A stretch of DNA of 39,300 nucleotides from Escherichia phage vB_EcoP_F: the sequence record NC_047808.1; one strand, written 5' to 3'. The notes under the pieces were generated by a model that saw nothing but the letters and a program-made list of their open reading frames with translations, was not told where the DNA came from and did no database searches. Position numbers and translations under genes: made by a program. Positions 4,429 through 32,634 of the stretch are shown here, one piece after another (position 1 is the stretch's first letter; each line of letters opens with the position of its first letter).

Positions 4429-4480
4429 GTGTTAGACTCAAGGTCATTACTATATGTAGTGGCCTTTATGGTTAACACTA
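4429..4480 (+). promoter_or_regulatory. candidate RNase III processing hairpin (R18.5 position) containing motif TAGACTCAAGGTCAT
   Basis: Imperfect inverted repeat GTGTTA..TAACAC enclosing the recurrent motif; intergenic, same relative position as T7 R18.5. Confidence 0.3.
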
Positions 4481-4529
4481 ACTAGTGGAGGCGACTCTAC
4501 GTGAAATCTGATAAACCGGGAGGGCAACT

Positions 4530-4979: not shown

Positions 4980-6739
4980 GTAAAGACTTAGTGGCGCGTC
5001 AGGCGCTAATGACTGCCCGTATGAAGGCAGACTTCGTGTTCTTCCTGTTCGTCCTGTGGAAAGCTCTGTCACTCCCGGTCCCGACTCGCTGTCAGATTGA
5101 CATGGCGAAGAAACTATCGGCTGGCGACAACAGGCGTTTCATCCTACAGGCGTTCCGTGGTATCGGGAAGTCCTTCATTACGTGTGCATTCGTGGTCTGG
5201 AAACTATGGAACAACCCAGACTTGAAGTTCATGATTGTGTCGGCCTCAAAGGAACGAGCCGATGCGAACTCCATCTTCATCAAGCGAATCATCGACCTCA
5301 TGCCTCAGCTTAAGGAACTCAAACCTAAGCAGGGACAGCGAGATGCGGTTATCAGCTTCGACGTTGGACCAGCCAAGCCGGACCACTCACCTTCGGTTAA
5401 GTCCGTTGGTATCACTGGTCAGTTGACTGGTAGTCGTGCTGACATCCTGATTGCCGATGACGTGGAGGTTCCGAACAACTCAGCGACTCAGGCTGCACGA
5501 GACCGTCTGTCAGAGCTTGTGAAAGAGTTCGATGCTATCCTGAAGCCCGGAGGCACAATCATCTATCTGGGTACTCCTCAGAACGAGATGACCCTGTATC
5601 GTGAGCTGGAAGGTCGTGGGTACACCACTACTATCTGGCCTGCTCGTTATCCACGCGACAGGAAGGACTGGCAGTCTTACGGCGACCGTCTGGCTCCTAT
5701 GCTTCAGGCAGAACTGGAAGAGGACCCTGAGTCCTTCTACTGGCGTCCGACCGACGAGGTACGCTTCGATGATACGGACCTGAAGGAACGTGAGTTGTCA
5801 TATGGCAAGGCTGGCTTCGCTCTACAGTTCATGCTTAACCCGAACCTGAGTGATGCTGAGAAGTACCCTCTGAAGCTCCGTGACCTTATCGTAGCTGACT
5901 TGGACCCAGCGTCTAGCCCAATGGTCTACCAATGGCTTCCTAACCCTCAGAACAAGCGTGAGGACGTTCCTAACGTTGGACTCATGGGGGACTCATACCA
6001 CACGTATCAGACTGTAGGTTCTGCCTTCAGTTCGTACACCCAGAAGATTCTAGTCATTGACCCTAGTGGTCGTGGTAAGGATGAAACTGGTTATGCGGTA
6101 CTGTACCAGCTAAACGGCTACATCTTCGCTATGGAAGTTGGCGGTATGCGGGGCGGCTATGAAGACTCTACGCTGGAAGCCCTGGCTAAGATTGGTCGTA
6201 AGTGGAAGGTCAACGAATACGTAATTGAGGGTAACTTCGGTGATGGTATGTACCTTGAGCTATTCAAGCCTGTAGCTTCCCGTATTCATCCTGCTGCTGT
6301 AACTGAAGTGAAGAGTAAGGGTCAGAAGGAACTCCGCATCTGTGACGTTCTGGAGCCTATCATGGGGTCTCACCGACTTATCATCAACGCTGCTGCTATC
6401 GTCCAAGATTACCAGTCTGCCTCTGATAAGGATGGTGTTCGTAATCCTATCTACTCTCTCTTCTACCAGATGACACGTATCTCTCGTGAACGTGGAGCAT
6501 TGGCACACGATGACCGACTTGATGCGCTGGCTATCGGTGTACAGTTCTTCGTTGAGTCTATGGCGAAGGATGCCAACAAAGGCGAACGTGAAGTCACTGA
6601 GGAGTGGCTGGAAGAACAGATGGAGAACCCACGGAAAGGCTTCGAGTCCATCCACACTGAGTTCTGGGACAATGGGGTCCGGGTAACTCACGATACGGAC
6701 GACGAGCTTGGACTAGGGTCCTACGTTACGTTCCACTAG
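4976..6739 (+). CDS. terminase large subunit gp19
   Basis: 587 aa; strong similarity to recalled T7 gp19 from the first residues ([33 protein letters not shown]); apparent TTG start 4976 overlapping Rz stop, GAAGGAGG RBS upstream. Confidence 0.9.
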
Positions 6740-6800: not shown

Positions 6801-6833
6801 CCAGTCTAACCTACTGTTTTACAAGGAGTTTGG

Positions 6834-7517: not shown

Positions 7518-7715
7518 TCTCACAGTTCAAGAACCTCAAGTCTCCCCATAGGCCCTCTTTAAGTCCAGACCAAAGGCCCTACCCAGTCTATCATAAGGCT
7601 GGACCGATGGTCGACGATAGGTCTAGGCTATGGCTGGAGGTCAGGACGATAGGTAGGGACTATTGGTCTGTCTCTGAGTCTCTATCTGTATAGTGATATA
7701 GTATAACATTACGTC
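7518..7715 (+). other. predicted physical genome terminus and terminal-repeat region (single collapsed copy); left end predicted at 7518
   Basis: TCTCACAGTTCAAGAACC..CCCCATAGG at 7518 resembles recalled T7/T3 left-terminal sequence (TCTCACAG..); non-coding; flanked by short-repeat arrays; right boundary not determinable. Confidence 0.3.
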
Positions 7716-7815
7716 CTACACCTACAGTCCTACACCTACAGTCCTACAACCTACAGTCCTACAACCTACAGTCACAACCATAAGACACCAACACCTACAG
7801 TCATAGACCTACAGT
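7716..7815 (+). repeat. array of imperfect short tandem repeats (unit approx CCTACA[A]CCTACAGT, 14-15 bp period)
   Basis: cctacacctacagtcctacacctacagtcctacaacctacagtcctacaacctacagtc.. seen directly; position equals T7 left-end short-repeat array. Confidence 0.5.
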
Positions 7816-7926
7816 TAATAGACACACAGCTATAGACTTAAGGTCAAAGACATGTTAGTCAAAGACTATATCCTCTTACACCATGAGGCCGACGATAGCT
7901 CAATCAATATTATTTCGAATTACCTA

Positions 7927-7956
7927 TTGACTATAGGTCTAGACTATGGCTTAATA
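7927..7956 (+). promoter_or_regulatory. candidate host sigma70 early promoter (A1-like): TTGACT-17 bp-CTTAAT
   Basis: -35 TTGACT at 7927..7932; spacer contains CTAGACTATGG resembling T7 A1 spacer; weak -10. Confidence 0.3.
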
Positions 7957-8067
7957 GCTTCCGTCAACACGACACGGCAACAACCGGATAGTGAAGACGC
8001 CTGGTCATCCCGGTTAAGTAGACAGCCTGATAAGTCATACGAACAACAGGCAGATGACAGAAAGTAG

Positions 8068-8105
8068 TTGACAAGATGTAACGATAAGATGTAAGCTGTA
8101 CCACA
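8068..8105 (+). promoter_or_regulatory. candidate host sigma70 early promoter (A2/A3-like): TTGACA-18 bp-TAAGCT followed by GTACCACAT
   Basis: Consensus -35 TTGACA at 8068..8073; architecture and downstream GTACCACAT resemble recalled T7 A2/A3 promoters. Confidence 0.45.
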
Positions 8106-8204
8106 TCGAAACAACGGTGATGACCAACACTGAAATGGTCTACCTGAAGTCCTCTGACTGAAGGGAATGCTCTTTAACAATCTGGATAAACTCTTAATGT
8201 GCGC

Positions 8205-8262
8205 CGACAGTGATTAACTACAGGGTCTTTGAGTCTACATCTGAAGGCCCTGACTGATAGTC
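8205..8262 (+). promoter_or_regulatory. candidate RNase III site/hairpin (AGTGATTAACTACAGG ... CCTGACTGATAGTCACTAAC), copy 1
   Basis: Imperfect inverted repeat; a near-identical copy precedes the ocr gene (8532..8590). Confidence 0.35.
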
Positions 8263-8284
8263 ACTAACTTAACGGATGGACACT

Positions 8285-8530
8285 ATGAAACACTTAAGCA
8301 CAATCACTAATCGCAATGAAGTATTCGTGAACACTAAAGGTTATGCGTGGATTCAGCTTAAAGAGATGACAGGAGCGCGTCACCGTGTGGTAGTGCGCAA
8401 GGTCTCAAGCAAGCCATTCAGCAACTACAGCGTAGATACTGTGCGTATAGACAACGAGACCTACCTGATAGACTCGCAGATAACCGTGAGTCTTACAGCG
8501 GGCGTCTCAGCTCCTTATTTCGCTAACTGA
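8285..8530 (+). CDS. hypothetical early protein (first gene downstream of host promoters)
   Basis: Track ORF 8276..8530; start moved to ATG 8285 with GGATGG RBS; no recognisable homolog. Confidence 0.45.
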   Translation: MKHLSTITNRNEVFVNTKGYAWIQLKEMTGARHRVVVRKVSSKPFSNYSVDTVRIDNETYLIDSQITVSLTAGVSAPYFAN

Positions 8531-8531
8531 G

Positions 8532-8590
8532 AGTGATTAACTACAGGTCGTTAGACTCATAGCGGCCTGACTGATAGTCACTAACATACA
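8532..8590 (+). promoter_or_regulatory. candidate RNase III site/hairpin, copy 2 (R0.3-like), upstream of ocr
   Basis: Repeat of the 8205..8262 element (AGTGATTAACTACAGG..GCCTGACTGATAGTCACTAAC). Confidence 0.35.
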
Positions 8591-8617
8591 CACAAACAAC
8601 TTTGAGAGGATATAACT

Positions 8618-8962
8618 ATGGAACGTAACGCTAACGCATACTATGAGCTGCTGGCTGCAACCGTTGAGCTGTTCAATGAGCGTATTCAGTACGACGAAAT
8701 AACTGAAGGCGATGATTATTATGATGCGCTGCATGAGGTCGTAGACGGTCAGGTTCCGCACTATTACCACGAGATTTTTACGGTGATGGCTGCTGATGGT
8801 ATAGACCACGAGTTCGAAGACTCTGGGCTGATGCCTGAGACCAAGGACGTAATGCGTATACTACAAGCTCGCATCTATGAGGCTCTGTATAACGATGTGT
8901 ATGATAGCTCGGATGTAGTCTGGTTCGAGGCTGAAGAGAGTGACGAGGAGGACTGCGAGTGA
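8618..8962 (+). CDS. ocr: Ocr-like DNA-mimic anti-restriction protein gp0.3
   Basis: 114 aa, acidic; strong match to recalled T7 gp0.3 (VPHYY..IF.VMA..GID.EFEDSGLMP.TKDV.RILQARIYE). Confidence 0.85.
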   Translation: MERNANAYYELLAATVELFNERIQYDEITEGDDYYDALHEVVDGQVPHYYHEIFTVMAADGIDHEFEDSGLMPETKDVMRILQARIYEALYNDVYDSSDVVWFEAEESDEEDCE

Positions 8963-9111
8963 TGGTAACTTATGGTCTCTGCCAGCACCACGTCACCAAC
9001 GCCCGGCTTATGGTCAAGACCGGGCAGTTAAACCACGATGCGACTATGCGCCACCTGAAAGCGGTCTACGAGGGCCGCAAGCGTATACACGACAGCTTAC
9101 ACACTGAGTGA
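8962..9111 (+). CDS. hypothetical early protein, 49 aa
   Basis: ATGA overlap with ocr stop, GAGGAGGA upstream; own translation MVTYGLCQHHVTNARLMVKTGQLNHDATMRHLKAVYEGRKRIHDSLHTE. Confidence 0.4.
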   Translation: MVTYGLCQHHVTNARLMVKTGQLNHDATMRHLKAVYEGRKRIHDSLHTE

Positions 9112-9177
9112 TAGACGAGAGGTCATCGACTGATAGGTGGCCTCAAAGATTACCACTTACATTGATAGGAGTTAACT

Positions 9178-9267
9178 ATGAACATCGGTTACTGGGTATG
9201 CCTGTCTCCAGTTATCTGGATGATAGGCTATGGGTTATACGACTGTATTAAACGGAAATCACTATGA
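9178..9267 (+). CDS. hypothetical small hydrophobic peptide, 29 aa
   Basis: GGAG RBS at 9166..9169; MNIGYWVCLSPVIWMIGYGLYDCIKRKSL; stop overlaps next start (ATGA). Confidence 0.35.
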   Translation: MNIGYWVCLSPVIWMIGYGLYDCIKRKSL

Positions 9268-9461
9268 GTAGCGCAATATTGATAGCCATAGGCTATGGAC
9301 TTATCGCCTACGTGCTGGTGAGAGACATCGACAAAGCGCGTAAAGTCTACAAATTCAACTATGTACGTCTGGGCCGCTGGACTGTACGTCAACCTAACGG
9401 ACGATTCATGCGCAACTTAGCGAACGTCTGGGATATAGCAACTATTGGGAGCAAACTGTAA
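9264..9461 (+). CDS. hypothetical early membrane protein, 65 aa
   Basis: Track ORF; N-terminal TM helix (AILIAIGYGLIAYVLV); translationally coupled. Confidence 0.45.
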   Translation: MSSAILIAIGYGLIAYVLVRDIDKARKVYKFNYVRLGRWTVRQPNGRFMRNLANVWDIATIGSKL

Positions 9462-9721
9462 TGAAAACCGTATACATTAACAAACCATCTATCCGTAGCC
9501 GTGTAGAGCAAATACAGCGTGACGTGTTCTTACATCGCCGCATGGAGGCTGAGGGCCATAAGTCCGAACTGATGTGTCTGGCGTATGGTGGACGACCGAT
9601 CACTGAAGATGGTAAACTTTTAGTCTCAGGCTGGAAGGCGATAGACCAACGGTCAACCATCAAGCACACGACTAATGGTGACTTCAGCCATCTCCACGCT
9701 AACCCACTGATATGCAAGTGA
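9461..9721 (+). CDS. hypothetical early protein, 86 aa
   Basis: Track ORF; GGGAG RBS; ATGA overlap with upstream ORF. Confidence 0.5.
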   Translation: MKTVYINKPSIRSRVEQIQRDVFLHRRMEAEGHKSELMCLAYGGRPITEDGKLLVSGWKAIDQRSTIKHTTNGDFSHLHANPLICK

Positions 9722-9726
9722 TTATG

Positions 9727-9749
9727 ACTTAACTATCACTATAGGACTC
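9727..9749 (+). promoter_or_regulatory. phage RNA polymerase promoter immediately upstream of the RNA polymerase gene, ACTTAACTATCACTATAGGACTC
   Basis: Full consensus match; +1 G at 9744, 75 nt upstream of gene 1 ATG. Confidence 0.7.
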
Positions 9750-9815
9750 AAGGTCTAAGACTACAAGTGAAAGACCAAAGAGACTTTAAGTGAAAGACTA
9801 ATAACAAGGACTTTA
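9745..9815 (+). promoter_or_regulatory. candidate RNase III processing region (R1 position) with repeated AAGTGAAAGAC / GACTTTAAGT units
   Basis: GACTCAAGGTC motif plus internal direct repeats in leader of gene 1. Confidence 0.3.
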
Positions 9816-9818
9816 AGT

Positions 9819-12500
9819 ATGAGCGTCATCTCTATTGACAAACACGACTTCTCTGATGTGTCGAACGCCATTGAGCCGTTTAACCTGCTGGCCGACCACT
9901 ACGGGCAAGACCTTGCAGTCAAACAGCTTCAGCTTGAGCATGAGGCATACACTGAAGGCGAGCGACGTTTCATCAAAAACCTTGAGCGACAGACTGAGCG
10001 CGGGGAACTGGCAGACAATCAGGTCGCCAAGCCTTTGATGCAGACTCTGGTCCCTAAGATTGCGCAAGCCGTCAGGGAGTGGCATGAAGGTCCAGACGGG
10101 AAGCTGTCAACCTCTCGTCCTAGCGTAGCGTTCACCATGTTAAGCACTGAAGAGAAGGCCGTCAAGGACCGCTCTCTGCGTATCTCTTGCGAGTCTGCTG
10201 CGGTCATCATACTGAAGGTCATACTCTCCAAGCTGGTCAAGCCTGAAGGGATACCGATTACACCGATGGCCTCCGCGATAGGCCGCACACTTGAGGACGA
10301 AATCCGCTTCGGTCGCATCCGTGACAAAGAGAAAGAGCACTTCAAGAAGGCGATAGCTGATAACCTGAATAAGCGGGCCGGGGCGTCCTACAAGAAAGCC
10401 TACATGCAAGCGGTCGAGGCGTCCATGCTGGAGCAAGGCCAACTGGAAGATGCGTGGGGGACTTGGAGTCCTACAGAGGCTGTCCACGTTGGCATCAAGA
10501 TGCTTGAGATTGTCATCCAGTCAACACAACTGGTCGAGCTTAAGCGGTACGGTGCTGGCAATGCAGCGGCTGACGTAGAGATGGTCCACCTGTCGGACTT
10601 CTGGGTCAAGAAGATGGCACAACGAGGATTCAGCCTTGCGGGTATCGCTCCAGTCTACCAGCCTTGCGTCGTTCCACCTAAGCCGTGGACTGGTGTCGTA
10701 GGTGGTGGGTACTGGGCCAAAGGTCGCAGACCGTTACCATTGATTCGCTTAGGGTCTAAGTCTGCGGTAGCACGTTATGAAGACGTGTACATGCCTGAAG
10801 TCTATGACGCTGTGAACATCATCCAAAATACACCTTGGAAAGTGAACAAGGAGGTATTGGACGTGGTGAACATGGTCGAGAAGCTGAACAACACGCCTAT
10901 TGATGACATCCCTCAGATGGAACCGCTGAAGCCTGAGGACTATGCTGGTGAGACCGAGGAGGAACTCAAGGCATGGAAGAAGGCTGCTGCTGGTATCTAT
11001 CGCCGCGAGAAGGCCAGACAGTCACGCAGATTATCACTGAGCTTTATCGTTAACCAAGCAAACAAGTTCTCTCAGTTCAAGGCCATCTGGTTCCCGTACA
11101 ACATGGATTGGCGAGGTCGTGTCTACGCTGTCCCGATGTTCAACCCTCAGGGTAACGACATGCAGAAGGGTCTCCTGACTCTGGCAGTCGGCAAGCCTAT
11201 TGGTGCTGACGGTTTCAAATGGCTGAAGGTCCACGGTGCAAACTGTGCGGGTGTCGATAAAGTCACCTTCGAGGAGCGCATCAAGTGGGTGGAAGACAAC
11301 CACGAAAACATCATGGCTGCTGCTAAGGCACCGATGGATAGTATTGAGTGGTGGGGCAAGTTAGACTCTCCGTTCTGTTTCCTCGCGTTCTGCTTCGAGT
11401 ATGCTGGCGTAATGCACCACGGCCTGTCTTACTCCTGCTCGCTGCCGATAGCGTTCGATGGGTCCTGCTCTGGTATTCAGCACTTCAGTGCGATGCTTCG
11501 TGACCACATCGGTGGACATGCAGTAAACCTGACGCCATCCGGTAAGGTACAAGACATCTACCGCATTGTGTCTGACCGCATTGAGGAGGAGCTTAAAGTC
11601 CTGCTGATTAACGGTACTGACAACGAGATGGTCACTCACGAGGATAAGAAAACTGGTGAGATTACCGAACGTATCAAGCTGGGGACACGAGAGCTGGCCC
11701 GTCAGTGGCTGACATACGGTATGTCACGCAAGGTCACTAAGCGTTCAGTCATGACTCTGGCATACGGGTCGAAAGAGTACGGCTTCGCAGACCAAGTTTA
11801 CGAGGACATCGTGATGCCAGCGATTGACTCAGGGTCTGGCGCTATGTTCACCGAGCCGAGCCAAGCGTCTCGCTTCATGGCTAAGATGATTTGGGAAGCT
11901 GTGAGCGTGACCGTAGTTGCTGCGGTTGACGCGATGAAGTGGCTTCAGGGTGCTGCCAAGCTGCTGGCTGCTGAAGTGAAGGACAAGAAGACTGGAGAAA
12001 TCCTGAAGCCTTGCCTTCCGGTACACTGGGTAACACCTGATGGTTTCCCGGTCTGGCAGGAATACCGCAAGAAGGATACCACTCGTCTGAATCTGATGTT
12101 CTTAGGGTCATTCAACCTTCAACCTACGGTCAACAAAGGCATGAAGAAAGAGCTGGACAAGCACAAGCAGGAGTCAGGCATTAGCCCGAACTTCGTCCAC
12201 TCACAAGATGGTAGCCACCTACGCAAGACTGTAGTCCACACGCATCGCAAGTATGGCGTGATGTCATTCGCAGTGATTCATGATAGCTTCGGGACCATCC
12301 CGGCTGACGCTGAATATCTGTTCCGTGGTGTCCGTGAGACGATGGTCGAGACCTACCGCGACAACGATGTGCTGCTTGACTTCTACGAGCAGTTTGAATA
12401 CCAGCTTCACGAGAGCCAGCGCGATAAGTTGCCTGAGCTTCCGAAGAAAGGTAAACTGAATATCGAAGACATCTTGTCTTCAGACTTTGCATTCGCTTAA
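9819..12500 (+). CDS. single-subunit DNA-directed RNA polymerase gp1
   Basis: 893 aa vs T7 RNAP 883 aa; conserved motifs e.g. HDSFGT, YGVMSFAVIHDSFGTIP, C-terminal FAFA. Confidence 0.95.
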   Translation: MSVISIDKHDFSDVSNAIEPFNLLADHYGQDLAVKQLQLEHEAYTEGERRFIKNLERQTERGELADNQVAKPLMQTLVPKIAQAVREWHEGPDGKLSTSRPSVAFTMLSTEEKAVKDRSLRISCESAAVIILKVILSKLVKPEGIPITPMASAIGRTLEDEIRFGRIRDKEKEHFKKAIADNLNKRAGASYKKAYMQAVEASMLEQGQLEDAWGTWSPTEAVHVGIKMLEIVIQSTQLVELKRYGAGNAAADVEMVHLSDFWVKKMAQRGFSLAGIAPVYQPCVVPPKPWTGVVGGGYWAKGRRPLPLIRLGSKSAVARYEDVYMPEVYDAVNIIQNTPWKVNKEVLDVVNMVEKLNNTPIDDIPQMEPLKPEDYAGETEEELKAWKKAAAGIYRREKARQSRRLSLSFIVNQANKFSQFKAIWFPYNMDWRGRVYAVPMFNPQGNDMQKGLLTLAVGKPIGADGFKWLKVHGANCAGVDKVTFEERIKWVEDNHENIMAAAKAPMDSIEWWGKLDSPFCFLAFCFEYAGVMHHGLSYSCSLPIAFDGSCSGIQHFSAMLRDHIGGHAVNLTPSGKVQDIYRIVSDRIEEELKVLLINGTDNEMVTHEDKKTGEITERIKLGTRELARQWLTYGMSRKVTKRSVMTLAYGSKEYGFADQVYEDIVMPAIDSGSGAMFTEPSQASRFMAKMIWEAVSVTVVAAVDAMKWLQGAAKLLAAEVKDKKTGEILKPCLPVHWVTPDGFPVWQEYRKKDTTRLNLMFLGSFNLQPTVNKGMKKELDKHKQESGISPNFVHSQDGSHLRKTVVHTHRKYGVMSFAVIHDSFGTIPADAEYLFRGVRETMVETYRDNDVLLDFYEQFEYQLHESQRDKLPELPKKGKLNIEDILSSDFAFA

Positions 12501-12518
12501 TAACATAGGAGAGACAAC

Positions 12519-12719
12519 ATGCAGTTCGCACACCGTGTATCAAACGTATCTGGCGGCAACAAGGTAGTAACCGTAACCACTGTGGCTGGCAAGGGTCTGG
12601 TCAAGGTTACTATGGTCCCGACCGGAACGGCTAAGGCCAAGGGTATCAGCCAGAAGGAGCTGATTCAGGTAATCAAGTGGTCCCACGAGAAGTCCCTACG
12701 GGAAGAGGCAACCAAATGA
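12519..12719 (+). CDS. hypothetical protein, 66 aa
   Basis: Track ORF; GGAGAG RBS. Confidence 0.45.
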   Translation: MQFAHRVSNVSGGNKVVTVTTVAGKGLVKVTMVPTGTAKAKGISQKELIQVIKWSHEKSLREEATK

Positions 12720-12793
12720 CATACCTACAGTTACTGGCCTTGTGGCTGGGAGTACTAGCAGTATTCACTTTAATCCAACGCAGAAGAGGTTAA
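12716..12793 (+). CDS. hypothetical small hydrophobic peptide, 25 aa
   Basis: ATGA coupling; MTYLQLLALWLGVLAVFTLIQRRRG; ends at promoter. Confidence 0.3.
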   Translation: MTYLQLLALWLGVLAVFTLIQRRRG

Positions 12794-12816
12794 CCTAAAC
12801 TATCACTATAGGATTA
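12794..12816 (+). promoter_or_regulatory. phage RNA polymerase promoter (phi1.1 position), CCTAAACTATCACTATAGGATTA
   Basis: Consensus match; by analogy with T7 this region may also be the primary replication origin. Confidence 0.75.
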
Positions 12817-12870
12817 GACTCAAGGTCATGACTCAGAGTCGTGGCCTTCATGATTAACCCTATAACCTAA
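12815..12870 (+). promoter_or_regulatory. candidate RNase III site (R1.1 position) with motif TAGACTCAAGGTCAT
   Basis: Recurrent motif at 12815..12829. Confidence 0.3.
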
Positions 12871-12888
12871 ACAACTGGAGCTACAACA

Positions 12889-13068
12889 ATGTATCAGAAC
12901 ACTATCAACTTCGAGCGCATCCGTGAACGTCAGCAGACTGAAGATTACATTCCGAAGGGCCGCAAGCTGAACAAGACCAAGCGTGGCGGTGGTGTCAAGG
13001 GTGCTTTCCGTAACGCTGAGGGCAAAGACTCTATGGTAAATCAAGAGAAATACTTCGTAGGAGCATAA
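12889..13068 (+). CDS. gp1.1-like small basic protein, 59 aa
   Basis: Own translation MYQNTINFERIRERQQTEDYIPKGRKLNKTKRGGGVKGAFRNAEGKDSMVNQEKYFVGA; KGRKLNKTKR matches recalled T7 gp1.1; GGAG RBS. Confidence 0.6.
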   Translation: MYQNTINFERIRERQQTEDYIPKGRKLNKTKRGGGVKGAFRNAEGKDSMVNQEKYFVGA

Positions 13069-14388: not shown

Positions 14389-14399
14389 CTAAACGTCAA

Positions 14400-14430
14400 C
14401 CCAGTGGTCTTCGGACTGCTGGGTTTCTTT
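14400..14430 (+). terminator. intrinsic terminator (early terminator TE position): CCCAGTGGTC-UUCG-GACTGCTGGG + TTTCTTT
   Basis: 10-bp stem (two G-U pairs), UUCG tetraloop, U-rich tail; immediately after ligase gene, as T7 TE. Confidence 0.65.
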
Positions 14431-15279: not shown

Positions 15280-15438
15280 ATGAGCCTTGAAGAAAAGAAG
15301 TACATCGTGGAGCTTGAGGGACGCGTTCAGTCCTTCGAGGTTCCGTTGTACGCAAAGTCTCTTGAAGAGGCTACCCTGAAGTCCCAAGAGTATGAGGACG
15401 CTGGGTTTGTGGTCGGACGGATTCGTCCTGAGACCTAA
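15280..15438 (+). CDS. gp2-like inhibitor of host RNA polymerase
   Basis: [24 protein letters not shown] matches recalled T7 gp2; start ATG 15280 with GGAAGGAG RBS (track ORF starts 15217). Confidence 0.7.
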
Positions 15439-16646: not shown

Positions 16647-16870
16647 TGACCCAAGAAGTTAAGGTCGTTCGTCAGCGTCTGACCATTGATAAAATCCCGG
16701 TAGGCTATGCGTTTATCGTCCACGGTAAGCCTGGTGAAGTGTACGTGAAGATTAGTAACTCTCACGTCTTCAACCATAAGTTGCTCCAGATGCACACCAC
16801 GGATGCTAACCGCTTCCAACGTCATCTGAACCTCGTAGCTGTAGAGCTGGTGGTGTATGATGGTGAGTAA
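16646..16870 (+). CDS. hypothetical protein, 74 aa, between gene 3 and 3.5
   Basis: ATG 16646 with AAAGGAG RBS; overlaps both neighbours; no T7 counterpart recalled. Confidence 0.45.
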   Translation: MTQEVKVVRQRLTIDKIPVGYAFIVHGKPGEVYVKISNSHVFNHKLLQMHTTDANRFQRHLNLVAVELVVYDGE

Positions 16871-17318
16871 GGTGCAATTCAACCCACGGTCCCGGACTGA
16901 CGCTATCTTCGTTCACTGTTCGGCTACCAAGCCAGAGATGGACATCGGGGTAGAGACCATCCGTATGTGGCACAAGCAGCAAGGCTGGCTGGATGTAGGC
17001 TACCACTTTATCATCAAGCGTGATGGTACTGTGGAAGAGGGTCGCCCGGTAAATGTCGTAGGGTCACACGTTAAGGATTGGAACTCCCGGTCCGTAGGCG
17101 TCTGCCTTGTAGGGGGAATTGACGCTAAGGGTCAGTTTGAAGCTAACTTCACTCCAGCCCAGATGAACTCCCTGCGCAACAAGCTGGCTGACCTGAAGGT
17201 CCTGTATCCTCAGGCAGAAATAAAAGCACACCATGACGTAGCACCTAAGGCGTGTCCAAGTTTTGACTTGCAACGCTGGCTGTCTACCAATGAACTGGTC
17301 ACTTCCGACCGTGGTTAA
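16857..17318 (+). CDS. N-acetylmuramoyl-L-alanine amidase (T7 lysozyme) gp3.5
   Basis: DAIFVHCSATKP, GYHFIIKRDGTVEEGR, HHDVAPKACPSFDL..NELVTSDRG match recalled T7 gp3.5. Confidence 0.9.
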   Translation: MMVSKVQFNPRSRTDAIFVHCSATKPEMDIGVETIRMWHKQQGWLDVGYHFIIKRDGTVEEGRPVNVVGSHVKDWNSRSVGVCLVGGIDAKGQFEANFTPAQMNSLRNKLADLKVLYPQAEIKAHHDVAPKACPSFDLQRWLSTNELVTSDRG

Positions 17319-19550: not shown

Positions 19551-19856
19551 ATGTTACGAAAACTTAAAGCTCGCTACCATCGGTTCATGTACAAATGGTG
19601 GAGTGACGAAGCAACCTGCCTGTCCAACATTCTGGGAGACCAAAGGTTCGAAGGCGTGGGGAGGGTAAAGCTCGCTACCATCGGTTCATGTACAAATGGT
19701 GGAGTGACGAAGCAACCTGCCTGTCCAACATTCTGGGAGACCAAAGGTTCGACTCCGAGGCGTGGAAGAGAGCTAACCGGAAGTTTATGTATCACTTCTT
19801 GCGTACAGACTTCTAGGTCTAGACTCAAGGTCATTCATAGCGAGTGGCCTGTATGA
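19551..19856 (+). CDS. hypothetical protein ORF altered by an internal 101-bp tandem duplication (gene 4.x region)
   Basis: GGAGGG RBS before ATG 19551; reading passes through repeat copy 1 in one frame and copy 2 in another. Confidence 0.3.
   Translation: MLRKLKARYHRFMYKWWSDEATCLSNILGDQRFEGVGRVKLATIGSCTNGGVTKQPACPTFWETKGSTPRRGRELTGSLCITSCVQTSRSRLKVIHSEWPV
19565..19766 (+). repeat. tandem direct duplication, period 101 bp, 87 bp identical (19565..19651 = 19666..19752)
   Basis: Seen directly: TAAAGCTCGCTACCATCGGTTCATGTACAAATGGTGGAGTGACGAAGCAACCTGCCTGTCCAACATTCTGGGAGACCAAAGGTTCGA twice. Confidence 0.85.
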
Positions 19857-19870
19857 TTAGACTAAAGCGG
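19814..19870 (+). promoter_or_regulatory. candidate RNase III site (R4.7 position) with motif TAGACTCAAGGTCAT
   Basis: Motif at 19820..19834 in intergenic leader of gene 5. Confidence 0.3.
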
Positions 19871-24160: not shown

Positions 24161-24221
24161 TTAGGACCTAAGATATGACTATAAGATAGACTTTAGTCTT
24201 AACTTAAAGAGGAGATTCAAG

Positions 24222-29256: not shown

Positions 29257-29262
29257 TTGAAA

Positions 29263-29299
29263 CCCCTTGGGTGCCTTCGGGTGCCTGAGGGGTTTTTTT
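29263..29299 (+). terminator. intrinsic terminator (Tphi position): CCCCTTGGGTGCC-UUCG-GGTGCCTGAGGGG + T7
   Basis: 13-bp stem (with G-U pairs), UUCG tetraloop, seven T residues; directly after capsid gene. Confidence 0.8.
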
Positions 29300-30219: not shown

Positions 30220-32577
30220 ATGCCACTAATTACTCAATCAATCAAGAACCTTAAAGGTGGCATTAGCCAACAGCCTGATATACTGAGGTTCTCAGACCAA
30301 GGCGAGGCACAGGTTAACTGCTGGTCATCCGAGAGTGATGGCCTCCAGAAGCGCCCACCTACAGTCTTCAAGCGACGTCTTAACATCGACGTTGGGAGCA
30401 ACCCTAAGTTCCACCTGATTAACCGTGACGAGCATGAGCAGTATTACATCGTGTTCAATGGGTCCAACATTCAGGTAGTTGACTTGAGTGGTAATCAATA
30501 CTCAGTGTCAGGTGCGGTAGACTACGTTAAGTCCTCCAACCCACGAGATGACATCCGTGTCGTTACCGTGGCAGACTATACGTTCGTCGTTAACCGTAAG
30601 GTTGTCGTCAAAGGTGGAAGCGAGAAGTCACACTCTGGTTATAACCGCAAAGCACGAGCTTTAATTAACCTGCGTGGTGGACAGTATGGTCGAACCCTTA
30701 AGGTGGGAATCAACGGTGGCGTTAAGGTCTCGCATAAGCTACCAGCAGGTAATGATGCCGAGAATGACCCGCCTAAGGTGGACGCTCAAGCCATTGGTGC
30801 AGCTCTGAGAGACCTTCTTGTTACTGCCTACCCTACCTTCACGTTTGACCTTGGGTCTGGATTCCTGCTAATCACAGCTCCTTCAGGGACCGATATTAAC
30901 TCAGTGGAGACGGAGGATGGCTACGCTAACCAGCTAATAAGCCCAGTCCTAGACACTGTGCAGACAATCTCTAAACTACCTCTTGCCGCTCCTAATGGGT
31001 ATATCATTAAGATTCAAGGTGAGACAAACAGTAGCGCCGATGAATACTACGTGATGTATGACTCCAACACTAAGACGTGGAAGGAGACAGTGGAGCCGGG
31101 AGTTGTCACTGGGTTCGATGTCACCACAATGCCACATGCTCTGGTAAGACAGTCTGACGGCTCCTTTGAGTTCAAGACTCTGGATTGGTCCAAGCGTGGT
31201 TCTGGTAACGATGACACAAACCCTATGCCTAGCTTCGTGGATGCTGCGATTAATGATGTGTTCTTCTACAGGAACAGACTTGGGTTCTTGTCGGGTGAGA
31301 ACGTAATCATGAGCCGTTCAGCCAGCTACTTTTCGTTCTTCCCTAAGAGTGTGGCGACACTGAGTGATGATGACCCTATTGATGTAGCTGTAAGTCACCC
31401 TCGAATCTCAATCCTTAAGTATGCCGTTCCGTTTAGCGAGCAGCTACTACTTTGGTCGGATGAGGTTCAGTTCGTGATGACAAGCTCTGGGGTCCTTACC
31501 TCGAAGTCTATCCAGCTTGATGTAGGCTCAGAGTTTGCCTTAGGCGACAATGCCAGACCGTTCGCTGTAGGACGCTCAGTCTTCTTCTCAGCTCCTCGTG
31601 GGTCATTCACCAGCATTAAGCGATACTTCGCTGTAGCTGATGTGTCTGATGTGAAGGATGCTGATGATACAACCGGTCACGTATTGTCCTACATCCCTAA
31701 CGGGGTGTTTGATATTCAAGGTACAGGGACTGAGAACTACATCTGCGTCAACTCTACAGGTGCATACAACCGTATCTACATCTACAAGTTCTTGTTTAAG
31801 GACGGCGTACAGCTTCAAGCCTCTTGGTCACACTGGGAGTTCCCTAAAGATGATAAGATTCTGGCGTCTGCTTCTATTGGCTCTACCATGTTCATCGTTC
31901 GTCAGCATCAAGGAGGGGTAGACATTGAGCACCTTAAGTTCATCAAGGAGGCAACTGACTTCCCGTCAGAGCCATATAGACTACACATTGACTCCAAGGT
32001 GTCTATGGTAATTCCAATTGGCTCATATAATGCTGACACCTATAAGACTACGGTTGACATTGGTGCTGCTTATGGTGGCAACGCTCCGTCTCCCGGTCGG
32101 TACTATCTGATTGACAGTCAGGGTGCTTATGTGGACCTTGGGGACTTGACCAGTATCTCTACTGTGATTACCCTCAACGGCGATTGGTCAGGACGTACAG
32201 TGTTCATCGGACGGCCCTATCTGATGTCCTACAAGTTCTCACGGTTCCTGATTAAGATTGAAGATGATAGGGGCACTCAGTCTGAAGACACTGGTCGTCT
32301 ACAGCTTCGTCGGGCCTGGGTCAACTACAAGGACACTGGCGCTCTGAGACTCATTGTCAGAAACGGTGAGCGAGAGTTCGTTAACACCTTTAATGGGTAC
32401 ACCCTTGGTCAGCAAACCATAGGGACTACTAACATTGGTGACGGGCAGTATCGCTTCGCTATGAATGGTAACGCATTAACCACGAGTCTAACCTTAGAGT
32501 CCGACTATCCTACCCCAGTGTCCATCGTTGGGTGTGGCTGGGAGGCATCATACGCTAAGAAAGCTCGTTCAGTCTAA
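30220..32577 (+). CDS. tail tubular protein B gp12
   Basis: 785 aa; position and size as T7 gp12; AGGAGGG RBS. Confidence 0.9.
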   Translation: MPLITQSIKNLKGGISQQPDILRFSDQGEAQVNCWSSESDGLQKRPPTVFKRRLNIDVGSNPKFHLINRDEHEQYYIVFNGSNIQVVDLSGNQYSVSGAVDYVKSSNPRDDIRVVTVADYTFVVNRKVVVKGGSEKSHSGYNRKARALINLRGGQYGRTLKVGINGGVKVSHKLPAGNDAENDPPKVDAQAIGAALRDLLVTAYPTFTFDLGSGFLLITAPSGTDINSVETEDGYANQLISPVLDTVQTISKLPLAAPNGYIIKIQGETNSSADEYYVMYDSNTKTWKETVEPGVVTGFDVTTMPHALVRQSDGSFEFKTLDWSKRGSGNDDTNPMPSFVDAAINDVFFYRNRLGFLSGENVIMSRSASYFSFFPKSVATLSDDDPIDVAVSHPRISILKYAVPFSEQLLLWSDEVQFVMTSSGVLTSKSIQLDVGSEFALGDNARPFAVGRSVFFSAPRGSFTSIKRYFAVADVSDVKDADDTTGHVLSYIPNGVFDIQGTGTENYICVNSTGAYNRIYIYKFLFKDGVQLQASWSHWEFPKDDKILASASIGSTMFIVRQHQGGVDIEHLKFIKEATDFPSEPYRLHIDSKVSMVIPIGSYNADTYKTTVDIGAAYGGNAPSPGRYYLIDSQGAYVDLGDLTSISTVITLNGDWSGRTVFIGRPYLMSYKFSRFLIKIEDDRGTQSEDTGRLQLRRAWVNYKDTGALRLIVRNGEREFVNTFNGYTLGQQTIGTTNIGDGQYRFAMNGNALTTSLTLESDYPTPVSIVGCGWEASYAKKARSV

Positions 32578-32584
32578 CTTATTG

Positions 32585-32634
32585 AAGGGCCTATAGATTT
32601 ACCTTAACTATCACTATAGGGACTATAGGCCCTT
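32585..32634 (+). promoter_or_regulatory. perfect 12-bp inverted repeat (AAGGGCCTATAG / CTATAGGCCCTT) enclosing the phi13 promoter; candidate RNase III site R13
   Basis: Arms at 32585..32596 and 32623..32634 seen directly. Confidence 0.4.
32602..32624 (+). promoter_or_regulatory. phage RNA polymerase promoter (phi13 position), CCTTAACTATCACTATAGGGACT
   Basis: Consensus match, GGG start. Confidence 0.75.

Follow-up and report, generated by a model that had tools for sequence, protein, structure and literature searches.

Introduction

In the textbook scheme of T7 infection, gene 1, which encodes the phage RNA polymerase (RNAP), is a purely early gene transcribed by the host enzyme. The locus described here, from Escherichia phage vB_EcoP_F (NC_047808.1), raises the question of whether a phage of this group has placed its polymerase gene under the control of the polymerase itself. 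A sequence-only reading of this DNA had pointed to a full-consensus phage promoter directly upstream of gene 1, followed by a leader with internal direct repeats, and had proposed that this promoter would create positive autoregulation.

Genome organization around gene 1

The window, i.e. the whole stretch of 39,300 bases that was analysed, is a K1F-like coliphage genome (Kayfunavirus, Studiervirinae), complete and circularly permuted. Its region 9000-13000 shows 98.3% identity to Escherichia phage vB_EcoP_FFK3 and 92-97% identity to the other listed relatives. The K1F and EcoDS1 records align at their position 1 with window position 7518, and the CR44b record does so at its position 3. Together with the terminal repeat, mapped to 7518-7683, this places the physical left end of the genome at 7518. 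The start of gene 1 is therefore about 2.3 kb from this end, as in other T7 relatives. The gene 1 product shares 64% identity with T7 RNAP and 99% with EcoDS1 gp1. In the early region (7518-9744), the largest ORF has 114 aa, and a homology search of the proteins encoded by the window found no homologue of the gp0.7 kinase. The features used below are listed in Table 1.

Table 1. Position of the features discussed in the text (window numbering)
Feature	Position	Strand	Basis and remarks
Three canonical T3/T7-type RNase III hairpins, GACUCAAGGUCAU...GUGGCCUUnAUGAUUA	4431-4484, 12815-12866, 19818-19868	+	Headed by GACTCAAGGT
phiOR promoter	+1 = 6851	+	
Terminal repeat	7518-7683		Mapped by alignment to relatives
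Homologue of the first annotated EcoDS1 host-RNAP early promoter	7927-7963	+	36/37 identical to EcoDS1 469-505
Gene 0.38 homologue, last early ORF	9461-9721	+	72% identity to EcoDS1 gp0.38
Upstream flank CTAACCCACTGATATGCAAG..., common with the phiOR promoter flank (6806-6833)	9699-9726	+	Overlaps the 3' end of gene 0.38 (last codons and stop)
Predicted cognate phage-RNAP promoter, -17 to +6	9727-9749	+	ACTTAACTATCACTATAGGACTC; +1 G = 9744
Longer irregular hairpin, only in read-through RNA from upstream (host RNAP)	9733-9796	+	UCACUAUAGG pairs with CUUUAAGUGA
5'-proximal leader hairpin	9745-9784	+	Opens with the RNase III-site 5' box GACTCAAGGTC
Tandem leader repeat, about 23-nt unit AGACTnnAAGTGAAAGACnAA, two copies	9758-9801	+	Contains AAGTGAAAGAC twice
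Shine-Dalgarno, spacer and gene 1 ATG	9806-9821	+	AAGGA 9806-9810; CTTTAAGT 9811-9818
Gene 1, single-subunit T7-type RNAP, 893 aa	9819-12500	+	ORF and homology
Next phage promoter downstream of gene 1, then canonical R1.1-type hairpin	12794-12816	+	+1 = 12811
TE, host-RNAP terminator	14398-14425		Located by homology
gp2, host RNAP inhibitor	15280-15435		Encoded in the window
Gene 3.5 amidase/lysozyme homologue	16860-17315	+	96% identity to EcoDS1 gp3.5
Tphi homologue, first phage-RNAP terminator downstream of the gene 1 promoter	29260-29295	+	35/36 positions shared with the terminator annotated in EcoDS1; alignment score 34

The promoter-like site upstream of gene 1

The site ACTTAACTATCACTATAGGACTC, which consists of ACTTAACTATCACTATA followed by GGACTC, lies where the sequence-only reading had placed it: the stop codon of gene 0.38 is found 6 nt 5' of it, and its +1 G precedes the ATG of gene 1 by 75 nt. 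No other phage promoter of the genome lies further to the left, and about 2,227 bp separate its +1 from the physical left end. According to shuffles, 0.00 matches to the whole 23-mer are expected by chance. Furthermore, the core CACTATAGG has nine occurrences in the genome, all on the + strand, versus 0.22 expected.

A PWM was made from these nine core sites, the gene 1 site among them. The scan of the genome with this matrix gave 11 promoters in total, every one on the + strand. They match one-to-one the 11 promoters annotated in EcoDS1, namely those located before gene 1 and before gene 1.1, phi1.6, phi2.5, the one located before gene 4, phi6.5, phi9, phi10, phi13, phi17 and phiOR. The gene 1 site scores 34.4, a value that is partly circular because this site helped to build the matrix, and the other eight sites used score 33.5-37.7. 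Two divergent middle promoters, left out of the building of the matrix, score 29.2 and 24.7. The site also fits the consensus CTWAACTATCACTATAGG published for another Kayfunavirus, which is independent of the PWM (PMC13298934). The label of full consensus is a fair one. Moreover, a T7 RNAP with the K1F specificity loop was shown to be active on, and orthogonal for, its predicted promoter of the K1F subfamily (PMC3458549).

The initially transcribed sequence, GGACTC, is nearer to those of middle promoters (GGATTA, GGACAA and GGACAG) than to those of late ones (GGGAGA/GGGACT). Due to this middle-type start, the output of the promoter may be modest. Besides the 11 promoters, a weak promoter-like sequence, CCTAAGATATGACTATAAGATAG (24167-24189, +1 = 24184, PWM score 14.8), is located 29 nt downstream of the start of phi6.5.

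Conservation and co-variation with polymerase specificity

Eighty loci encoding relatives of the polymerase were taken from IMG/VR. All 21 K1F-like, GW1 and CR8 loci carry the promoter, 75-102 nt before gene 1. Every locus with 88-99% polymerase identity thus has it, as has Citrobacter phage CR8 at 79%. Among public phage records, 219 of the 220 matching ones align over at least 80% of window positions 9640-9900. An unbiased search for the best 20-mer present on both sides of gene 1, within 1.2 kb upstream and 1.2 kb downstream, recovers the gene-1-proximal site in the K1F-like, GW1 and CR8 loci. The same search found no site near gene 1 in the T7-, T3/BA14- and K11/KP32-like loci, a few of which have left-end phiOL-type sites located more than 0.6 kb from gene 1. 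L040 has a phiOL-type site at 33-52, about 1.17 kb upstream of gene 1. L042, a T3-like contig, carries a cognate T3-type promoter (AATCACCCTCACTAAAGGGA, about 568-590) in the early region, about 620 nt upstream of gene 1.

The promoter maps of other phages give the same picture: T7, T3, BA14, K11 and SP6 have no gene-1-proximal phage promoter (in SP6, no SP6-type promoter was found before the polymerase gene), whereas the K1F-like relatives examined all have one. The earlier statement that gene 1 of T7 is served only by host promoters was overstated. T7 indeed has no phage promoter close to gene 1, but phiOL lies upstream in the same orientation, and 'host promoters only' is therefore not strictly true. 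Among the genomes examined, the loss of phiOL and gp0.7 coincides with the presence of the gene-1-proximal promoter.

In three lineages, the bases found at -12 to -8 of the gene 1 site are those of the promoter located downstream of gene 1 in the same genome. The promoters flanking gene 1 both have AACTATCACTATAGG in this window and most relatives, both have AAACCCTCACTATAGG in Cronobacter phage GW1 (L017 and L041), and both are GGAAGGTACACTATAGG in CR8 (L015). At the positions of T7 N748, R756 and Q758, the polymerase of the window has N/N/Q, which goes with AACTAT, a core that we take to be also that of the promoter used with the T7 RNAP carrying the K1F loop. The loop of the GW1 polymerase is D/R/Q, i.e. 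the T3 solution, and pairs with a T3-like ACCCT promoter. The CR8 loop has K at the first position, as K11, and the promoter has AGGTA, with GG at -11/-10. The specificity switches of GW1 and CR8 are natural ones, among polymerases that are 79-89% identical.

The proposal of a phage-RNAP promoter directly upstream of gene 1 is thus borne out: the position of the site is conserved in the relatives, its orientation is that of the gene, and it co-varies with the specificity loop of the polymerase. It is very likely a working cognate promoter. A literature search, exclusive of the K1F genome paper, retrieved no transcript 5'-end or in vitro transcription data for any Kayfunavirus.

Autogenous feedback as the proposed function

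We propose that gene 1 would belong to two transcription units, one made by the host RNAP and the other by the phage polymerase. The host RNAP would start at the left-end early promoters and read through genes 0.3-0.38 into gene 1. A sigma-70 scan missed the annotated early promoters, and homology to EcoDS1 was used instead to find the host promoter listed in Table 1. This promoter would supply the first gene 1 mRNA and start the loop: no terminator-like site was found between it and gene 1, so that the host enzyme would make this first mRNA. The first polymerase molecules would then bind 9727-9749 and initiate at G9744; transcription would cover their own gene and continue through the middle genes to Tphi. 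No terminator-like site was found on the + strand between 9744 and 9819 either. With a cognate promoter in the same orientation and no terminator before the gene, transcription of gene 1 by its own product would follow logically. The polymerase mRNA would thus be amplified, and its synthesis would be sustained after the shutoff of the host enzyme by gp2.

Unchecked polymerase feedback is toxic in engineered T7 autogenes, and a brake therefore has to be assumed. Two restraints on the loop are proposed, the gp3.5 lysozyme and the middle-class (GGA...) initially transcribed sequence. By analogy with T7, in which gp3.5 is a known inhibitor of the RNAP, gp3.5 is a candidate brake on the feedback loop. 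We infer that the promoter fires in vivo, that the extra mRNA raises the level of the polymerase and that gp3.5 limits the loop.

Altogether, the site is probably a functional promoter for the phage's own K1F-type RNAP which, with its 75-nt leader, would give autogenous positive feedback. Judging from the arrangement of the locus, positive feedback on polymerase synthesis appears to be the most likely function.

A possible substitute for phiOL

The promoter would also drive all the genes located past gene 1, and it is the sole phage promoter to the left of gene 1 in a genus without phiOL. Autoregulation therefore need not be the function that was selected. The T7, T3, BA14 and K11 records place phiOL ahead of the host promoters, some 350-500 bp from the left end (annotated at 353-501). 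Neither EcoDS1 nor the window has a phiOL, and the PWM scan of the latter is blank between 7518 and 9744. Since phiOL is lacking and the gene 1 promoter is the leftmost one, the latter might substitute for phiOL, being selected mainly as the leftmost entry site of the phage RNAP with self-transcription of gene 1 as a by-product. We consider this main rival of the feedback model unlikely, and judge in the same way the roles that it would then have, i.e. late transcription of the left part of the genome, priming of replication or recombination, or stronger expression of genes 1.1-1.3 and beyond.

The upstream flanks of the gene 1 promoter and phiOR are identical at 19 of 28 positions, with a local alignment score of 14 versus a maximum of 12 in 2000 shuffles. 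The two promoters have in common a 47-nt module that includes a -14 T variant and an upstream TAACYYACTG, a core also found in the phiOR flanks of BA14 and T7 (L089 and L088). This suggests that the gene 1 promoter arose from a phiOR-type module, and links it to the end-associated class of promoters, which speaks for a phiOL substitute. The element can be written as TAACYYACTG(A/T)T.T.CA (about -44 to -27); it is found at the gene 1 promoter, at phiOR and, in part, at phi13 (32574-32590).

However, the +1 of the gene 1 promoter is 2,227 bp (2.2 kb) from the left end and downstream of the host promoter homologue, whereas a phiOL precedes the host promoters and is no more than about 500 bp away from the left end. 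As the gene 1 promoter, phiOL of T7 and T3 is a phage promoter located upstream of gene 1 in the same orientation, but it is 2.6-2.8 kb away from this gene. Here, the distance of 75 nt to gene 1 is fixed and the Shine-Dalgarno and leader are conserved, which applies even to CR8 despite its different flanks; this fixed distance argues for a role directed at gene 1. Moreover, the promoter must transcribe gene 1 whatever other role it has. The leader does not point to phiOL either: it scores 12-14 against those of the T7, BA14 and K11 phiOL, within the range of other leaders (7-14), and 14 against the phi1.1 and phiOR leaders. A relocated phiOL was therefore rejected, as the leader is no nearer to phiOL leaders than to unrelated ones and the upstream element is of the phiOR type. 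In T7 and BA14, the upstream flanks of phiOL and phiOR are unlike each other (13 and 16 of 43 positions).

A replication origin comparable to T7 phi1.1A/B, with an AT-rich tract and primase sites, was also considered by eye and set aside: the leader is only moderately AT-rich, and only one primase-like site (AGGTC) was seen on the displaced strand.

The leader and the RNA-level alternatives

The direct repeats announced by the sequence-only reading are real: AAGTGAAAGAC is found at 9765-9775 and 9788-9798, and GACTTTAAGT at 9782-9791 and 9809-9818. A repeat search showed that they belong to a tandem repeat whose copies (9758-9778 and 9781-9801, 21 nt each) are 86% identical, with partial extra copies at 9745-9763 and 9807-9823. 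The last partial copy provides the spacer between the Shine-Dalgarno and the ATG, and the second GACTTTAAGT overlaps the end of the Shine-Dalgarno. The Shine-Dalgarno/spacer/ATG segment is invariant among the Kayfunavirus relatives. The repeats (9790-9801 and 9767-9793) also contain a Shine-Dalgarno-like AAGAG followed by GTG mini-ORFs (GTG AAA GAC TAA and GTG AAA GAC CAA AGA GAC TTT AAG TGA), which look like duplicated ribosome-binding regions of gene 1.

From +2, the leader carries the 5' box of a T7/T3-type RNase III site (...ACU(C/U)AAGGUC), GACTCAAGGTC at 9745-9755. Its decamer GACTCAAGGT is strongly over-represented in the genome, with 7 exact occurrences and 23 with at most one mismatch versus 3.2 expected. 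The three canonical hairpins of the window (Table 1) compare well with R0.3, R0.5 and R1.1 annotated in T3. In the gene 1 leader, by contrast with these canonical sites, the 3' box (GUGGCCUUnAUGAUUA; form GUGGCCUU(n)AUGAU) is absent, AGACCAAAGAG being found in its place, and the upper stem has only 5 + 3 bp versus 9-11 bp. The leader folds are no better than those of shuffles (z = -1.0 to -1.6). In an RNAalifold analysis of 12 diverse leaders, covariation lent no support to a fold (term +0.39 kcal/mol; of 22 predicted pairs, only one is kept through two-sided changes), and an Rfam scan of 9400-10100 gave no match at E <= 1. The leader was therefore rejected as a canonical RNase III site homologous to R1, since it has the 5' box only, lacks the 3' box and folds at the level of shuffles. 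Judged by its motifs, it is built of ordinary leader elements of the T7 group, namely a 5' box of the RNase III type and a tandem repeat with a 23-nt unit.

The two kinds of transcripts would not start with the same structure. RNA begun at 9744 can form an interrupted stem of about 11 bp. In read-through RNA, the pairing gives a longer stem of about 21 bp, interrupted by several internal loops (-17.4 kcal/mol, z = -1.57, which is not significant alone). In addition, the Ro45lw/Dev2/IMM-002 subgroup (L011, L012, L013, L019 and L021, about 1100-1203; Dev2 = L091, 455-540) has a promoter variant, CACTAAAGG (-2 T>A), and a leader segment, CTTTAGTGATA, that has become a perfect 11-nt inverted repeat of the promoter core through this promoter change and two leader changes. 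Kc166A (L090, 395-475) has CACTGTAGG plus AGTGATA. Either selection for pairing or one templated mutation of the quasipalindrome type could explain the perfect repeat of the subgroup.

A quite doubtful extension of the autogenous model is that the promoter core doubles as a hairpin arm in the host-made read-through RNA. Gene 1 would then have two mRNAs with different 5' structures, one of them early and processed or stabilised, and the other polymerase-made; in the latter, the freed GACUUUAAGU could pair with its AUG-adjacent twin and damp translation. If true, gene 1 would be a natural autogene with its governor built in, and this device would have persisted while promoter specificity switched at least twice.

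It is very unlikely that the key role of the region is at the RNA level, in the early host-made transcripts, with the promoter core and leader forming a processing or stability hairpin that replaces R1. We view as equally improbable the related possibility that what matters is two kinds of gene 1 mRNA differing in processing or translation. A canonical R1 hairpin does occupy the same intergenic position in T7, BA14, K11 and T3, and the over-represented 5' box that opens the leader, the read-through stem of up to about 21 bp (UCACUAUAGG with CUUUAAGUGA), the perfect 11-bp repeat of Ro45lw/Dev2 and the AGTGATA kept by Kc166A are all consistent with such a role. However, besides the missing 3' box, the shuffle-level folds and the RNAalifold result, no such pairing is found in CR8 and the subgroup repeat has the mutational explanation given above. 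An RNA-level role would in any case be compatible with promoter function.

Lastly, an inactive relic of a duplicated phiOR module, as the 47-nt similarity to the phiOR region might suggest, is extremely improbable, since the site matches the full consensus, is kept in every relative and has been re-tuned at least twice with the specificity of the polymerase, whereas a relic, as a chance match, would have kept the old specificity or decayed.

Comparison with known systems

If the site is the promoter that we propose, the whole genus Kayfunavirus, plus the Caroctavirus CR8, has its polymerase gene under its own promoter, an arrangement that differs from the textbook scheme of T7. The gap between gene 0.7 and gene 1 of T7, T3, BA14 and K11 contains a weak promoter for the host enzyme (C) and R1, a canonical RNase III site, which in T7 and T3 form a promoter-plus-hairpin unit; in the phage studied here, the promoter is that of the phage itself, and of the two boxes the hairpin has the 5' one only. 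A promoter followed a few bases on by a hairpin is a standard module of the T7 group. For instance, phi1.1 of T3 (5984-6006) overlaps R1.1 (6003-6053), and the hairpin starts with ...CU(C/U)AAGGUC, like the gene 1 unit described here.

The promoter itself is already known. In EcoDS1 (NC_011042), an orthologous promoter 'phi' with the same 23-mer ACTTAACTATCACTATAGGACTC and leader is annotated at 2244-2266, after gene 0.38, its annotated end being 70 nt before the start of gene 1. Orthologous 'predicted promoters' are also annotated in the Citrobacter phages CR44b (HG818823, 1814-1836) and CR8 (HG818824, 3356-3378), the latter differing by its specificity (GGAAGGTACACTATAGG) and its longer leader. 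These are sequence annotations that carry no functional statement. Furthermore, a 2026 paper on a Kayfunavirus lists the promoter repeat, which several coding sequences, SPD_007 among them, carry at their 3' end (PMC13298934). Judging by the numbering, SPD_007 would be just before the polymerase gene SPD_008.

The idea of autoregulation has also been published, for phiA318 and LUZ100. In the Pseudomonas phage LUZ100, phi1 is located directly upstream of the RNAP gene, and a positive-feedback model was proposed on the basis of ONT-cappable-seq data (PMC10134795). The promoters of this phage come from ONT-cappable-seq, some of them from motif search and inspection (PMC10134795). LUZ100 is distant and temperate-like, and a MarR-like repressor has been proposed as the gate of its loop; by contrast, the window has no repressor and its promoter is predicted from the sequence. 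In the Vibrio phage phiA318, the predicted promoter phi-A8 lies immediately upstream of the early kinase and RNAP genes, and autoregulation was suggested (PMC4099482). Thus, phi-A8 precedes a kinase-RNAP pair, whereas the window has no gp0.7 kinase. Since the promoter was annotated and the feedback idea published, our analysis adds comparative support and not a new phenomenon; what it contributes is mainly the co-variation with the specificity loop, together with the description of the leader. These data are relevant to models of infection timing and to the engineering of K1F-type phages and of expression systems, in particular the orthogonal ones derived from K1F.

The same logic is found in an engineered system, the T7 autogene reportedly built by Dubendorff and Studier in 1991, in which the RNAP gene is under its cognate promoter and amplifies itself. 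This autogene is said to be a synthetic plasmid construct that was tolerated only with lac repression and lysozyme. By contrast, the arrangement described here is natural and belongs to a lytic genome. It may illustrate how the self-amplification of a polymerase is tolerated in nature.
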